Assembly: GCF_000022265.1 (NCBI RefSeq)
Contig: NC_011979.1
Span: forward strand, 570,001 to 602,000
Direction of reading: 5' to 3'
DNA length: 32,000 nt
Source of the DNA: Geotalea daltonii FRC-32
GTDB taxonomy: Bacteria > Desulfobacterota > Desulfuromonadia > Geobacterales > Geobacteraceae
The translations under genes and the position numbers were made by a program. This document shows, one piece after another, positions 19,335 to 28,057 of the stretch. The notes below the pieces were generated by a model. That model saw nothing but the letters and a program-made list of their open reading frames with translations. It was not told the origin of the DNA and did not search any database. The number at the start of each line of letters is the position of its first letter. Positions within the stretch are counted from its first letter, which is position 1.

Positions 19335-19877
19335 ATGGCAGTGAACAAAGCGGAATTGCAGAAGGAATTTGCTGACGACTTCATAAGAAAAATCGACAGG
19401 CGGTTCGTACACAAGGCAAAGGACGAAAACGTGGTAATCAGCGATATCTGCCGGCGGGAAGACCTGGGGCCCGATATCTACCAGTGTTTTCTAACCTATG
19501 ACGACCAGCTGCCCTTCTTTTTCGAACACTATCTGGACCATGTACCGGGGCTTCTCGTCATCGAGGCCGCACGGCAGATGGGTACGGCGACGGTGCATAA
19601 ATTCTACGACGTGGATTTCGACACGATCTTCATTCTGGATGTGGTCAACTGCAGTTTTACCAATTTTCTCGAATGTCAGGAACCGGTGGTCATCCAGATA
19701 GCCATAATCGCACCAAACGGCCCGGACAGGGTGCGGAAAGCATTCAGCTCCGTCGTCACCATCTTCCAGCATAGCGAAAGCAAAGGGACCATCGAGTTCA
19801 ATTGCACCTGCATTCCGAAAAAACTCTTCGCGCGGATGAGACGGACGGCGGCGGCATGCACAGGAGGGGGACAATGA
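19335..19877 (+). CDS. Single-domain AfsA-type (A-factor biosynthesis) hotdog protein
   Basis: Matches PF03756-type motifs as I recall them: FVHKAKDENVVISD (compare VHKxxxENVL) and PFFFEHYLDHVPGLLVIEAARQMG (compare FFDHxxDHVPGMxxxEAxRQ). The ATG at 19335 is preceded by GGAGG; the track ORF starts at 19314. Confidence 0.72.
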   Translation: MAVNKAELQKEFADDFIRKIDRRFVHKAKDENVVISDICRREDLGPDIYQCFLTYDDQLPFFFEHYLDHVPGLLVIEAARQMGTATVHKFYDVDFDTIFILDVVNCSFTNFLECQEPVVIQIAIIAPNGPDRVRKAFSSVVTIFQHSESKGTIEFNCTCIPKKLFARMRRTAAACTGGGQ

Positions 19878-21658
19878 GACTGAAAGCACTGATTGCTTGC
19901 TTCGGTATCCTCTGGTCGTGTTCCCTGTCCCATGCCTTCGACCATGGCAGCCTCTACGGCGATTTTGTTGCCGTCGATGCCCAGGATGGGAAAATAGATG
20001 GTTCGGCCGACCTGCTTACTACCGCCCTGTGCGGCAAGTGTCATAACGATAAGATCAGCGAGGTGATGGCCACGGTCCACTATACCTTCCGTTCGGAAAA
20101 CAAGATGATCGACTTCCCCGGCGGGGGGATGCACGGCCATTACGACCGGAGCAGCGGACTGACCGGCGGCAATACGGTGGTCAATTACTATTTCGACAGC
20201 GAGCGGGGGTGCGGCAAGTGCCATGTGGGGAAATACCTTCCCGGTACCATGGGAGAAATCGATCTGCTCACCGGGTTGCCCACGGCTAACATGGAAAAGG
20301 TCCGGAACGGGATCGACTGTCTGATTTGCCACGCGGCCACCTACAGCGGGAGAGATAAGTTGGTGGAGGAGATCGATGCCGACGGCACGAAGGCTAAGTA
20401 CTGGCACCAGGATCGGACATGGAGTGCTGTATCGAGCATCGGCAGGTCGACCACTGCGGCTTGCTTGCGCTGCCACAGCGAGGCTGCATCCCCCAATGAG
20501 CGGGGAACCCCCTTCGCCACATGGAACGACGTGCACATTGCCTCTGCTGCCTTTTCCGGCAACGCCTGCACCAGGTGTCACAATGTGGGCAAGCATAAAA
20601 TGGTGCGGGGCAACCATATTGCCGAGATATTCGCCTCGGATTACCAGGTAGGGTCGGCAGAAAACGAGCTGAAATGCGAGAAATGCCATTCGGCGAAGCC
20701 CCATGATAAAGAAACCCTCAATGGGCATGTGAGCAGGGTAGCCTGTCAGACGTGTCACATCCCCTGGACCTCCGGGGCCACCTATTCCCGCTGGGAGCTG
20801 GATGGGACCCAGACGGAATTCGCCCGGGGGGGAATCTTCTCCGCCGAGGACAGTAAACCCTATACGACAGCGGGGATGAGCGAACGGGAGGTTTGGGAGA
20901 CCTACAAAATGCGGCCACGGTACCTGTGGTTCAACGGAAAAGCAAGCTACCTTGCCCAGCCAATCGGCAGCAAAGGGGAGAATGGCAGCAAGATCTGGCC
21001 GTTCAAGCCCCTTTCTTCAGGGCTTCCCGTGGATACGAGCGGACTGCGCATGGCGGACCTCCTGGACGACGCTACTTTGCAAACGGCAATGGTAAGGACA
21101 GGTTCCATGGTGCCCGGTGACGCCCCTGGCGCTACGGCGTTGGCTGGTGTAGGCACCCTGGCCAACCGTACTGTCGATTCCAGCCTGAGCTTGGAGCTTC
21201 AACGGGAGATGCTGGAAGTGCCGCTGCTTCTGAACCTGGATCTGGAAGTGCTCAAGAGCGGCGGCTCCATGACCCCGGCCATCGACTCGGCAATGAGCAA
21301 GACCTACAACTCCCTCAACTTCCTTGGGAAACTCTTCGGTGCACCCGCCGATGCTGCGGTCCTCTCCATCTTCAACGGCAACTACAGGAGCGACAGCTAT
21401 CTTGTGACAACCCTTCCCACCGGACAGAACATGCAGAAATACAATGCCAACTATCCCAGCGGCTCGTTCCTTACCCTGACCCATGGTGTCAGGCCCTCCT
21501 CCGAAGCGCTTAAATGCTATGACTGCCATAGCTCAAGGGGCGTCATGGCCGGAAACCGCCTGAGGGTTTATGATCGTCTCGACGGGAACATGAACCCCGT
21601 CTATCGCGAAGTCGACAATTTCGATGTTTTGGGAATAAAGCCGCAGGGGGGCATATGA
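19874..21658 (+). CDS. Secreted octaheme c-type cytochrome
   Basis: Signal peptide MRLKALIACFGILWSCSLSHA. Eight CXXCH motifs: CGKCH, CGKCH, CLICH, CLRCH, CTRCH, CEKCH, CQTCH, CYDCH. The ATG overlaps the upstream stop (ATGA) and follows AGGAGGGGG. Confidence 0.9.
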   Translation: MRLKALIACFGILWSCSLSHAFDHGSLYGDFVAVDAQDGKIDGSADLLTTALCGKCHNDKISEVMATVHYTFRSENKMIDFPGGGMHGHYDRSSGLTGGNTVVNYYFDSERGCGKCHVGKYLPGTMGEIDLLTGLPTANMEKVRNGIDCLICHAATYSGRDKLVEEIDADGTKAKYWHQDRTWSAVSSIGRSTTAACLRCHSEAASPNERGTPFATWNDVHIASAAFSGNACTRCHNVGKHKMVRGNHIAEIFASDYQVGSAENELKCEKCHSAKPHDKETLNGHVSRVACQTCHIPWTSGATYSRWELDGTQTEFARGGIFSAEDSKPYTTAGMSEREVWETYKMRPRYLWFNGKASYLAQPIGSKGENGSKIWPFKPLSSGLPVDTSGLRMADLLDDATLQTAMVRTGSMVPGDAPGATALAGVGTLANRTVDSSLSLELQREMLEVPLLLNLDLEVLKSGGSMTPAIDSAMSKTYNSLNFLGKLFGAPADAAVLSIFNGNYRSDSYLVTTLPTGQNMQKYNANYPSGSFLTLTHGVRPSSEALKCYDCHSSRGVMAGNRLRVYDRLDGNMNPVYREVDNFDVLGIKPQGGI

Positions 21659-24252: not shown

Positions 24253-25227
24253 CTAAAGGCAGGCGATTTCGGTCCCTTTGCGATATTGGGAAGGGTTGGT
24301 GCCGCTGTACCGCTTGAATTCCTTTGAAAAATGGGAGTAATCGGAAAAGCCGGTCAGATAGCCTATTTCCGTGAGGGAAAGCTGACTGTTGAGGAGATAA
24401 CTCTCCGCCGTGCGTATGCGGGCATTATTGAGCAGCTTTCTGAAAGTCTGCCCCTCGTCCTGTAATTTCCTCTGCATGCTCCGCTCGGACATGTTCAGGG
24501 ACTGGGCAACGCTTTTCAGCGTCCATTTGTGATTCAGGTCCTGCTTGACGATAGCTTCCACGCTGTCCGACAGGCATTCCCGCTGGACAATCTTCGATTT
24601 CTGCAGGAGAAAGTCGTCGAGCCCTGAGATTTTTTCCGGCGGCGAAAACGATTCCCACTGGAATTTCCATTGACTGGCCCTCGCCTGGACTGCCCCCTTG
24701 AGGGACGCGTCGTCAAGATACTGGAAAATCTCCGGGTTCCCAACTTTTTGCCAGCCGTAGGAAAGCTGCCGGCATCCTATCAACCCCAGCAGGGTTTTCA
24801 GTACGCCGCAGGCAAAGAAATCCTCCGCCGCAGAGATGGGCTGTGCCAGGGCCGTGACGTGGCTGACGGTCACGCTGCAAGGTTCCGCCGCATCCAGCCT
24901 GATCCTCTTCGCCGAATGGATATAGCGGTAATAGTTCTCCAGCTTGTTGATCAGTGTCTTGGGCGAATCCGAGTTCAACAGAAAATAAAATAAGGGAAAA
25001 TCGCACGAAGAGTTGCAGTGCTCGCCGATATTGAGAATCGGCTCTGCACCGCATTCGGAGAGCAGGTCATCCAAGAGGGCGACCTTTTTTTCTGCCGGTA
25101 TTACCTGTACATCCCCCCGCTTGATCTGCTCGATAAGGGCGGCGCGCTTGCCCATGGTCCTGGGGGCCAGGTGCGAGACGCCGTTGACGATCAGTTTGAC
25201 GATACCCACATGGACGAATTGTTGCAT
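24253..25227 (-). CDS. AraC-family transcriptional regulator
   Basis: C-terminal AraC double HTH (LSLTEIGYLTGFSDYSHFSKEFKRYSGTNPSQYRK). The start is uncertain: 25227, or the internal MGKRAAL at about 25153. Confidence 0.85.
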   Translation of the reverse strand: MQQFVHVGIVKLIVNGVSHLAPRTMGKRAALIEQIKRGDVQVIPAEKKVALLDDLLSECGAEPILNIGEHCNSSCDFPLFYFLLNSDSPKTLINKLENYYRYIHSAKRIRLDAAEPCSVTVSHVTALAQPISAAEDFFACGVLKTLLGLIGCRQLSYGWQKVGNPEIFQYLDDASLKGAVQARASQWKFQWESFSPPEKISGLDDFLLQKSKIVQRECLSDSVEAIVKQDLNHKWTLKSVAQSLNMSERSMQRKLQDEGQTFRKLLNNARIRTAESYLLNSQLSLTEIGYLTGFSDYSHFSKEFKRYSGTNPSQYRKGTEIACL

Positions 25228-25699
25228 TACCTGCCTCTGCTGTACTCCCTGATGATACCCCGCCGGGTATCACCGATAAAAAAAGCCAATTAGGCTGGGC
25301 ACATTACCGTTAAATATCTGCAATGTCAAGGGGAGAGGCTTTGAGCGAGGTGGGAGGCTTTGCCCCGAAACCAGCTTGCGGTTGGCTCTCCTCCTGCCTT
25401 TCGCACTTTCTATCCCCTTTGATTTTTTGACCTTTTGCCCCATGCAAAAATTTTTACAGCCAACCTGCTGTAATTTCAGTTGAATTTCCCATTTTTCAGG
25501 AGTAGAAATGGCTAGTGCTCATTAATTGGAGTGGGTGAATCTGGAGGTGCGTTGGGCTCGCGGCGAAAGTTGTAGATGTGTCAACCTTCGGTGGTGGGGA
25601 AGCCGGCGAAGTTTATAGTATTAGAAACCTGTTGGGTTTATAGATGTAGAAACTTTGCAACTGCTCAAAAACGAGTTGGGCGAACGAAAGGAAAAGCAT

Positions 25700-26425
25700 A
25701 TGTCTCTTATAGTCACAGTTAATGTCGAAGAAGGTATAGTCATGGCAAGTGATAGCCGTTTGACTATGAACCTTCCACGCGATGTAAACGGCCAGACTGT
25801 ACTCGAGTGTGGAGTGTCGCAAAGCGACACTATTTACAAAACGTTTCTAGCTAAAAATGGTATTGGGATATCCATGTATGGTGATGCAACTATAAATGCG
25901 ATACCTATAAGTGGATATATTGAATCATTTATTAATGAAAAAATGGTTGAAGGTCAAACTTCTGTAGATGAAGTTCCAGAACTGTTGGTTGAGTATTTTC
26001 AAGCTATGTCGAATATTCCTAATACTGGATTTCATGTTGCTGGTTATAAGACTGAAGGTGAAAAACGTGTTAAAAAAGTTTATAAGGTCATTATATCCAA
26101 TGGAAATATAAGTAATATTGTACCAAACCAGTTATTGCACGGATCAATTTGGGATGGCGAGTCAGACGTTTTGATAAGAGTGATTAATCCGCATCTGCAC
26201 TTCTCTGAAGACATGGTTGCATATTCACCACTAACATCACACAGTATCCCTTTTGAAATGTTTACACTTCAAGATGCAATAGATTTTGCTGTTTATGCTA
26301 TCAAAACTACAGCTGACACAATGAGATTCCAAATGCGTACAAAAACTGTCGGTGGTCCTATCGACGTATTAGTTATAAAACAGCATGAAGCCTTCTGGAT
26401 CCAAAAGAAGTCTTTGCATATTTGA
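25700..26425 (+). CDS. Orphan proteasome-beta/HslV-like Ntn-hydrolase with Ser at the nucleophile position
   Basis: By-eye alignment to T. acidophilum beta: SLIVTVNVEEGIVMASDSRLTMN vs TTTVGITLKDAVIMATERRVTME; YKTFL..GIGISMYGDA vs KKLFQ..GMTIAGLVGDA; VGGPIDVLVIK vs SGGMIDVAVIT. The ATG at 25700 follows AAAGGAAAAG; the track ORF starts at a TTG at 25655. Confidence 0.7.
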   Translation: MSLIVTVNVEEGIVMASDSRLTMNLPRDVNGQTVLECGVSQSDTIYKTFLAKNGIGISMYGDATINAIPISGYIESFINEKMVEGQTSVDEVPELLVEYFQAMSNIPNTGFHVAGYKTEGEKRVKKVYKVIISNGNISNIVPNQLLHGSIWDGESDVLIRVINPHLHFSEDMVAYSPLTSHSIPFEMFTLQDAIDFAVYAIKTTADTMRFQMRTKTVGGPIDVLVIKQHEAFWIQKKSLHI

Positions 26426-26482
26426 GTATGGCATCCCTGGAATTACCCTAATGTACATAAAATTTCCTTTTAGGAGAAATCA

Positions 26483-26893
26483 ATGAGATTTTTAACAATA
26501 ATTTTCTTGCTTGTAACTATTAGTGGCTGCGCCACCACAGAAATCATTAATCAAATTCCAATGCCTCAAATACAAGCTTCGCAGCAAGCACAGGTAAAAG
26601 TCTGCAGGAAATATATTTTTCTAGGTGACGCTGCTGCAACGATAATTTCGTTAGATAGAAGACCTATATTACGTTCTTCTGCTGGGAAATGCTTTTCAGC
26701 TAAGGTAACCCCTGGTTCCCACGTTCTCGGTGTCATGACTCAAGGATTTGCAGGGCTAGAAATGAGAGAACTTGAATTTCTACTTCAAGAAGGCCAAACA
26801 AAATTCCTCAAAGTAAATCTGGATAGATTATATGAAGCCTCTGAGGACGAATTTTCAGGCTTTCTTAATTACGAACAGATAATCGTACAATAA
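26483..26893 (+). CDS. Lipoprotein (DUF2846-like beta domain)
   Basis: Signal peptide with lipobox MRFLTIIFLLVTISG|C. The body (...ISLDRRPILRSSAGKCFSAKVTPGSHVLGV) resembles DUF2846. RBS AGGAGA. Confidence 0.7.
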   Translation: MRFLTIIFLLVTISGCATTEIINQIPMPQIQASQQAQVKVCRKYIFLGDAAATIISLDRRPILRSSAGKCFSAKVTPGSHVLGVMTQGFAGLEMRELEFLLQEGQTKFLKVNLDRLYEASEDEFSGFLNYEQIIVQ

Positions 26894-26902
26894 ATCAGTC
26901 AT

Positions 26903-26969
26903 AACGCCGGCACAGACACTGACACGGCAGAGTAAAGCCCTGCCTCGCAGGTCATGCCGAGCCGCCGTT
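26903..26969. repeat. GC-rich imperfect palindrome between island genes (attC-like or REP-like)
   Basis: AACGCCGGC (26903-26911) pairs 8/9 with GCCGCCGTT (26961-26969). Inner pairs are TGAC/GTCA and GGCAG/CTGCC, with unpaired bulges. It ends in GTTGAGC, which fits GTTRRRY. Confidence 0.4.
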
Positions 26970-27010
26970 GAGCGGAAAAAGAAGAAAATTGTGGAAACCA
27001 AGAGCTAAAA

Positions 27011-27772
27011 ATGATCCCATCGTCTATTGAGTGGCTAAATAACAACCAAGGCGTGCTGAGCGTCATCCTCTTCATCATTACAATCGGATTAGGGTGGGCT
27101 AGCGGCATTTTTCGCACGCTCCGACAAAAACCGAAAATGAAGATAAGCCTACTCCCCGGGCCGACCTTCTGCTGCACGTATCTAATCGGGGAAAAACATG
27201 GCAAATATGATGTTCATCGGACAGGCATCGCGCTTTACCTCCATATTGCGAACATTGGGTCAGCTCCTTCCAGCATAGAACGCGTCTCCATCGGATACCA
27301 TTGGAACATCACACCTTTCAGCATTCAATGGTTGAAATATAGGATCGGCTGGTTTTGGTTACATGATCAAACTGCGGCCTTGATGGACTTTCAGGCAAAA
27401 ATAGGAGAAAATCTTAAAATATATCCATTCCTTACCCAAAAGAGCATCCTCTCTGGGGAAAGTGCTGAAACGTTTCTTGAGGTAGGTCGGTCCACAAATG
27501 GGGCCGTCTACTTTGAGCAGTCAGATAGCTGGGGTGCTTGTTTCCCCGTCGTGACAGACAATAAGGTTAAGCTTCAGGTTCGAGTAACCGACGTGTTCAG
27601 CAACAAACACCAAGCTACATTTGAAGTGCCAGCTGTTTCTTTTGAAGAAGCAAGGAAGTACAACCCATCGTTCGGGAAGACCCTGGCAGATTTGCATGGA
27701 AAACCTCTGCCTGTGGACATTTTGCCAGCTGCTGAAAGTTATTGCCATGAAGCCGCCAATCCAAGGATATGA
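27011..27772 (+). CDS. Membrane-anchored hypothetical protein (N-terminal TM plus beta-rich domain)
   Basis: 253-aa ORF in the AT-rich island with a TM segment VLSVILFIITIGLGWASGIF. I recognise no family. Confidence 0.55.
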   Translation: MIPSSIEWLNNNQGVLSVILFIITIGLGWASGIFRTLRQKPKMKISLLPGPTFCCTYLIGEKHGKYDVHRTGIALYLHIANIGSAPSSIERVSIGYHWNITPFSIQWLKYRIGWFWLHDQTAALMDFQAKIGENLKIYPFLTQKSILSGESAETFLEVGRSTNGAVYFEQSDSWGACFPVVTDNKVKLQVRVTDVFSNKHQATFEVPAVSFEEARKYNPSFGKTLADLHGKPLPVDILPAAESYCHEAANPRI

Positions 27773-27865
27773 ATCTCTCAACCCGCGCTCAGACCATGAC
27801 CGGGCGATAAAGAGGCCAGGCATGTGAATCGCTACCCCGTTATGCGTGAAATAAGGATTCAGAAG

Positions 27866-28057
27866 ATGAACGGATTTGAGATGATAAACGTCTTTATCGA
27901 TACTTCAATTTTTATCAAAATGAATTTTTTCTATGGGCATCCAACATTTGCGGCTCTAATAGAGTCAGTGAAACAAGGTAGAACGCGTATTCTACTGACT
28001 GAGGTGACTGTAGAAGAAGTCAAAGCGAATATCAGAGGAAATTTAACAGAAATTTAA
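27866..28057 (+). pseudogene. N-terminal fragment of a PIN-like (DUF4935/PIN_12-type) protein, truncated by hairpin element copy 1
   Basis: MINVFIDTSIFIKMNFFYGHPTFAALIESVKQGRTRILLTEVTVEEVKANI resembles the start of roughly 300-aa PIN_12 proteins. The reading frame runs into the element's GGAAATTTAACAG and stops there. Confidence 0.4.

Follow-up and report, generated by a model that had tools for sequence, protein, structure and literature searches.

We report that the gene starting at position 25,700 of a 32,000-nucleotide stretch of the Geotalea daltonii FRC-32 genome (contig NC_011979.1, positions 570,001 to 602,000; the whole stretch is called the window below) encodes a genuine stand-alone relative of the proteasome catalytic subunits that is probably active. 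The product has the fold of an N-terminal nucleophile (Ntn) hydrolase of the proteasome-beta type, its active-site residues are conserved throughout a large protein family, and the members of this family share no conserved gene neighborhood. It is likely, in our estimate, that the protein is a cytosolic, stand-alone Ntn hydrolase of the PMI type (‘Proteasome homolog with Multiple Insertions’) and that its neighbors are unrelated passengers. An original prediction, made on this DNA from the letters alone, had recognized the proteasome-like gene but joined it with the two genes that follow, for a lipoprotein and a membrane-anchored protein, into a self-contained three-gene module, possibly a stress or defense effector, in a context outside those described for bacterial proteasome homologs.

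The motifs on which the prediction relied are all found (numbering includes the initiator Met): ASDSR, whose Asp is residue 18 (17 in the mature protein), YKTF, whose Lys is residue 47 (46 in the mature protein, i.e., Lys33 plus 13), and GGPIDV at residues 218–223. Conservation was tallied over approximately 300–330 sequences of the family. Position 2 is Ser in 276 of 304 sequences and Thr in 23, so the N-terminal Ser/Thr that had been proposed as the nucleophile is conserved, and it directly follows the initiator Met in 290. Asp18 is kept in 321 of 325 sequences, Arg20 (the equivalent of Arg19) in 319 of 325, Lys47 in 317 of 328, and Gly61 in 326 of 331. Gly61 lies exactly 14 residues after Lys47, the same spacing as that between Lys33 and Gly47 of the proteasome. 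Thus, the nucleophile, the Asp, the Lys, and the oxyanion Gly are each 97–99% conserved. Asp43, located in a hairpin insertion, is also nearly invariant (310/327). The equivalent of the proteasome Ser129 is not conserved, and position 149 is mostly Ala.

Methionine aminopeptidase removes Met when it precedes Ser or Thr. Since this is the arrangement found here, Ser1 should become accessible with no propeptide to cleave, which also holds for Anbu, BPH, and the more recently described homologs (PMC8665760). Matches to the family profile typically begin at target residue 1, which indicates that there is no propeptide. The Met-Ser start is favored over an upstream TTG at 25,655 because a Shine-Dalgarno-like sequence stands 6 nt before the ATG (Table 1) and Ser/Thr is residue 2 in 290 of 304 relatives.

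At the sequence level, the protein has no match in Pfam even at E ≤ 1, and NCBIfam gave only a faint 21-residue match to the archaeal proteasome beta subunit (E 0.039). In a permissive Pfam scan of 45 aligned members, Connectase_N (PF09894; 9 of 45, best E 0.045) and Proteasome (PF00227; 5 of 45, best E 4.4e-4) were the sole families matched by more than two members, both below threshold. An hhalign comparison of the family with Escherichia coli HslV pairs Ser2 with Thr1 and Asp18 with Asp17. An AlphaFold2 model built from the 45-sequence alignment has a mean predicted local distance difference test (pLDDT) score of 81.8 and a predicted template modeling (pTM) score of 0.80, and it shows an alpha-beta-beta-alpha sandwich with the strands in the expected order and four helices. 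A Foldseek search of the PDB with this model returned 363 matches at E ≤ 1e-3; each of the top 50 is either Anbu or a 20S subunit (in most cases beta), with a probability of 1.00 and E values down to 4e-7. These matches bear out the proteasome-beta-type Ntn fold proposed originally. Two insertions are present. Insertion 1 (about residues 24–44) contributes approximately 13 extra residues, modeled as a low-confidence beta-hairpin between the strands bearing the Asp and the Lys, and insertion 2 (about residues 162–189) separates a short H3 from H4 by approximately 28 residues. The model keeps H1 (residues 70–81) and H2 (residues 92–101) and ends in a short strand, without a C-terminal H5 helix.

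From these features, a mechanism can be proposed. Methionine aminopeptidase would remove Met1 and expose Ser1, with no need for a propeptide or autoprocessing. The free alpha-amine and the hydroxyl of Ser1 would then attack an amide bond via an acyl-enzyme intermediate, assisted by the equivalents of Asp17 and Lys33 (residues 18 and 47) and by an oxyanion hole of the Gly47 type (Gly61). Neither ATP nor a dedicated unfoldase would be involved. The two family-specific insertions probably gate substrate access and limit ring stacking; because of these probable restrictions, the protein is more likely to be a specific peptidase or protein-processing enzyme than a bulk degrader in the style of the 20S proteasome.

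Some observations weigh against this interpretation. Searches of PDB chains with the single sequence and with the profile gave nothing relevant, i.e., the profile link to characterized families is weak, and the hhalign match to HslV has an E value of 0.019 and covers the first 31 residues alone. The template modeling scores (TM-scores) of the model to solved structures are moderate (0.5–0.65), and the insertion regions have low pLDDT. As for the neighbors, the Ntn, lipoprotein, and membrane protein genes are separated by gaps of 58 and 118 nt without clear terminators, and local co-transcription is possible.

Among predicted viral structures, the best match to the model is a phage protein in BFVD, A0A8S5LJV3 (TM-scores of 0.72/0.79, E 1e-11, 20% identity), a 219-residue protein of Siphoviridae sp. 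ct3o911 annotated as ‘proteasome beta type-2’. No solved chain of the proteasome or of Anbu comes nearly as close to the Ntn model in structure. The similarity between the two models raises the possibility of a sister group carried by phages, which might be PMI-4.

The insertions also bear on another possible function. Insertion 1, which carries Asp43, occupies the same S3/S4 site as the lid of connectase, and insertion 2 lies at the H3/H4 site, where an insertion is said to hinder double-ring formation (PMC8665760). Together with the faint PF09894 matches in nine of the 45 members, these positions are compatible with a connectase-like protein, that is, a monomeric or low-order, sequence-specific transpeptidase or ligase in which the acyl-enzyme at Ser1 is resolved by an amine and the S3/S4 insertion acts as a lid. 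Connectase (MJ0548, PF09894) likewise has a proteasome-like fold, an S3/S4 insertion, and no partner ATPase. However, connectase lacks H1 and H2, has a two-helix lid, and is found in methanogens alone, whereas the Ntn protein keeps H1 and H2, its insertion is a beta-hairpin, and its distribution is wide. Moreover, the 50 best PDB matches include no connectase chain, the PF09894 matches are far below threshold, and no candidate substrate gene is linked. On balance, a connectase-like activity appears unlikely.

The family to which the Ntn protein belongs is large. It comprises 2271 homologous clusters at 90% identity, nearly all of 235–250 residues and without a Pfam domain, so the gene is far beyond a chance reading frame. 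An exhaustive hidden Markov model search of 1.84 billion representatives (50% identity) gave 1999 matches at E ≤ 1e-3, 891 at E ≤ 1e-10, and 227 at E ≤ 1e-30, and relatives are present in at least 252 of 185,579 species genomes. The loci come from more than 15 phyla and include Methanoregula, Thermoplasmatales, Bathyarchaeota, Chloroflexota, Bacteroidota, Bacillota, Acidobacteriota, Nitrospirota, Desulfobacterota, Gammaproteobacteria, and others. Relatives occur patchily in both domains, and those from archaea and bacteria share 45–55% of their residues. Pfam, NCBIfam, and PADLOC contain no model for the family. It was not found in 50,697 phage records or 72,556 plasmid records, and a single match, at a contig end, was obtained among 2.9 million viral contigs. 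In most genomes the GC content of the gene follows that of the host (median difference −1.5%), and a minority of copies are strongly AT-shifted; therefore, the gene is a resident of many lineages and a recent acquisition of some, this genome among them. One member cluster of 232 residues holds 272 sequences, many of them on long contigs of gut Bacteroidales (Candidatus Gallipaludibacter), so the family is frequent in certain lineages of the gut. This cluster also holds 72-residue fragments annotated in Bacteroides fragilis. In one locus (L087, 53–604 and 1982–2806), a 90%-identical copy is N-terminally truncated (183 residues) and adjoins an IS3-family transposase and an Abi_C-domain protein.

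The patchy, cross-domain distribution, the strongly AT-shifted copies, and the transposases, integrases, Abi_C, and type I restriction-modification genes near some members of the family are features that a single-gene defense or abortive-infection effector might show, i.e., a proteasome-fold protease unleashed on infection or stress. Indeed, the island described here holds a PIN gene and a membrane protein gene whose family sits among defense-type genes. However, none of the Ntn, lipoprotein, membrane, PIN-fragment, and 290-residue proteins matches PADLOC-DB v2 at E ≤ 1. In a census of 118 immediate neighbors at 61 non-redundant Ntn loci, each Pfam family occurs at most four times, approximately 3–5 neighbors match defense models (type I restriction-modification, mad5), and many are housekeeping genes (KdpA, MetG, SAICAR synthetase, and FtsW). 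The enrichment in defense genes that the original prediction suggested looking for is thus not evident. Since the GC content of the gene also tracks the host in most genomes and the family is absent from the phage and plasmid collections, a defense effector is a quite improbable explanation, and this part of the prediction is not upheld.

The proposal of an envelope-linked module of the Ntn, lipoprotein, and membrane proteins was examined in 80 genome loci of the Ntn family, together with contigs of the closest metagenomic relatives. The three genes are indeed on the same strand and closely spaced, as mentioned above, and they are arranged identically in two further assemblies, both of essentially the same DNA. 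However, BLASTP detects no homolog of the lipoprotein, the membrane protein, the PIN fragment, or the 290-residue open reading frame (ORF) in any of the 83 other Ntn loci, and neither the Ntn gene nor the lipoprotein gene occurs in the 87 loci of the membrane protein family. Even close relatives have entirely different neighbors: 90%-identical Ntn genes stand next to the IS3 transposase and Abi_C protein or to a RAYT-like transposase, and a 61%-identical gene stands next to a GST-like gene. All-versus-all BLASTP clustering of the ORFs at 84 Ntn loci revealed no recurrent partner; the clusters consist of shadow ORFs, generic families such as response regulators and SDRs, and clade-restricted synteny, including an integrase family confined to a single Chloroflexia clade. 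Nor did a test based on protein properties reveal any tendency of the Ntn loci to have a lipoprotein or membrane protein gene downstream. Furthermore, the Ntn protein has no signal peptide and would therefore be in a different compartment from the lipoprotein. The module claimed originally is thus contradicted by the absence of any such linkage and is highly improbable. The lipoprotein, membrane protein, and broken PIN genes are unrelated passengers and not functional partners of the Ntn protein; the Ntn, lipoprotein, and membrane protein genes are thus best described as independently mobile passengers of one island.

Finally, a catalytically dead scaffold or pseudo-enzyme, comparable to the proteasome alpha subunits, might account for the lack of a conserved Ser129 equivalent, but it is scarcely credible given that deep divergence has left the oxyanion Gly, the Lys, the Asp, and the nucleophile in place and that nothing precedes the initiator Met, so that the nucleophile is precisely residue 2.

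The stand-alone Ntn hydrolase gene lies near the left edge of an island whose features are listed in Table 1.

Table 1. Features at and around the Ntn hydrolase gene (positions in the window).
Feature	Position	Strand	Remarks
AraC-family regulator gene	24253..25227	-	Divergent, 472 nt from the Ntn start; in normal-GC DNA, left edge of the island
AT-rich mosaic island	25300..30500	.	GC 38–46% versus 53–60% in the flanks
Shine-Dalgarno-like AAGGAA	25688..25693	+	6 nt 5' of the ATG at 25700; direct sequence reading
Proteasome-like Ntn hydrolase gene	25700..26425	+	ORF, 241 aa, N-terminus MSLIVTV
Lipoprotein gene	26483..26893	+	136 aa; lipobox ISGC; DUF2846 (PF11008) E 7e-4, below cut-off
Membrane protein gene	27011..27772	+	253 aa; one N-terminal membrane helix, Ig-like beta-sandwich (model)
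PIN_12 gene, split	27824..28405	+	PIN_12 E 2e-9; N-terminal 77-aa fragment 27824–28057, C-terminal remainder 28208–28405
86-nt MITE/REP-like element, three copies	28048–28133, 29701–29786, 30368–30453		98–100% identity
38-nt tandem array, four copies	29493–29629		Unit CCGGAATTCCGGGGACACCTTACTTAATTACCGCTTG; right side of the island, like the 300-nt repeat
300-nt direct repeat	29768–30067, 30490–30789		99% identical, 722 nt apart

The AT-rich island of the original prediction is confirmed by this dip in GC content; the Ntn gene itself has a GC content of 36.8%, compared with 55.8% for the upstream 25 kb. By its sequence, the island appears to be a horizontally acquired, repeat-ridden mosaic. No tRNA gene or integrase is present at its borders, and a search for an empty site through the flanking AraC and FMN-reductase genes gave fragments of the same arrangement alone. 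The arrangement of the AraC and Ntn genes was also seen in two other assemblies of near-identical DNA. Downstream of the Ntn gene, the ISGC lipobox gene, the gene for a protein with a single membrane helix, and the degraded PIN gene are all present as predicted. The PIN_12 gene is split by the first copy of the 86-nt element, which has perfect 22-nt hairpin arms (GTGTCAGGTCTACACCTTGACA / 17 nt / complement); removal of approximately 102 nt in silico yields an ORF of 159 residues. A further ORF of 290 residues (28538–29410) has no match in Pfam, NCBIfam, or PADLOC, and no homolog in any fetched locus.

The model of the membrane protein gave weak generic structural matches alone. Its family forms 483 unannotated clusters of about 246 residues, mostly from Proteobacteria and 60–87% identical. 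The neighbors of this family are variable, with many genes of the defense or mobility type, and include an integrase, ParE/Phd, HsdR-like proteins, mad2/3, PDC-S06/S14/S15, and LmuB, and the membrane protein may be a defense-island gene in its own right. A role as a fixed partner of variable enzymes was considered and rejected, as the pairing with SIR2_2, located directly upstream, was seen in four near-identical loci among 87 and nowhere else.

The rest of the window contains a flagellar operon (FliF, FliG, FliI, FliK, FlgD, FlgE, FliM, FliP, and FlhB) followed by genes for an acetyl-CoA transferase, a citrate synthase, a GntR regulator, an AfsA-like protein, and a multihaem cytochrome, and by genes for an epimerase, an MBL-fold protein, a HAD hydrolase, and the AraC regulator. 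The gene with the AfsA domain (A-factor biosynthesis hotdog; 19314–19877) is directly 5' of, and overlaps, the cytochrome gene (19802–21658), which encodes a multihaem protein of the MtrC/c7 type with 618 residues. This pairing is unusual for a Geobacter-like genome.

The proteasome family is a paradigm of regulated proteolysis, and connectase shows that odd relatives can have useful chemistry. With approximately 2000 clusters at 50% identity, the present family is among the larger uncharacterized proteasome-like groups. Because the family is large, its Ser1 active site is fully conserved, and no database model covers it, it is a reasonable target for biochemistry and for a Pfam or NCBIfam entry. 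The locus reveals no new system architecture; the three-gene arrangement is an accident of the mosaic island.

A comparison with known systems places the Ntn protein among the partner-less proteasome relatives. It shares with the 20S beta subunit (PF00227) the alpha-beta-beta-alpha Ntn sandwich, an equivalent catalytic tetrad, and an Arg19 equivalent, and 20S chains are its best PDB matches. Yet it lacks an alpha subunit, a propeptide, and H5, has Ser instead of Thr, contains two insertions, and fails the PF00227 threshold. As the original prediction correctly observed, the window contains no proteasome alpha subunit, AAA+ unfoldase, or Anbu-type ATP-grasp or transglutaminase gene; neither alpha-like nor Anbu-type genes are found among the recurrent neighbors of the family. 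Anbu (PDB 5NYG), one of the top structural matches, is also bacterial and has neither an AAA+ partner nor a propeptide, but it is accompanied by ATP-grasp and transglutaminase-like partners and has a long C-terminal coiled-coil helix, H5, that the Ntn model lacks. The N-terminal strand and the Asp align with those of E. coli HslV, whereas past the first 31 residues the profiles show no significant similarity. Compared with HslV and CodW, there is no adjacent hslU or codX gene, and the Ntn protein has 241 residues with insertions, in contrast to the compact HslV of approximately 175 residues. Bacillus CodW provides a precedent for a Ser1 nucleophile in the proteasome superfamily.

The closest counterparts are among the 22 new proteasome-like families reported by Fuchs, Alva and Lupas (Bioinformatics 2021; PMC8665760), which were found by iterative searches for conserved active-site residues. 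These families share an S1–S11/H1–H4 core with Thr1 or, alternatively, Ser1 as the nucleophile and with Asp17, Lys33, and Gly47; propeptides are confined to proteasome beta and HslV, and none of the 22 could be tied to a genomic context, a co-occurrence pattern, or an AAA+ partner (PMC8665760). Among them, the PMI subfamilies belong to group II, occur in bacteria and Euryarchaeota, and have insertions at S3/S4 and H3/H4 (PMC8665760). The Ntn protein resembles this type in being partner-less, in lacking a propeptide and a conserved context, and in having the same catalytic set, insertions at the same two sites, and a bacterial and euryarchaeal spread. However, no single listed subfamily combines its insertion pattern with its taxonomic spread, and none of the representative accessions of that paper is among the accessions of 30 Ntn clusters that were looked up. 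The protein may therefore belong to PMI-1, PMI-2, or another PMI, or to a family missed by the 2021 paper. Since members such as WP_092589906.1, KPK89597.1, and HEC21779.1 were public before the database freeze of August 2020 (PMC8665760), the family was probably within reach of that survey. No later characterization of the 2021 families was found in the literature. A bolder interpretation, which we consider doubtful, is that the family forms an additional, widespread cross-domain group beyond the 22 published, in which the Asp43 hairpin beside the catalytic Lys would act as a lid over Ser1 and the protein would be a non-compartmentalized, sequence-specific protease or a connectase-like ligase with a new quaternary structure. 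Collectively, the similarities to PMI indicate a protein of a kind already known: contrary to the original view that its context lay outside anything described, bacterial proteasome homologs without an AAA+ partner or a conserved context were catalogued in 2021 (PMC8665760).

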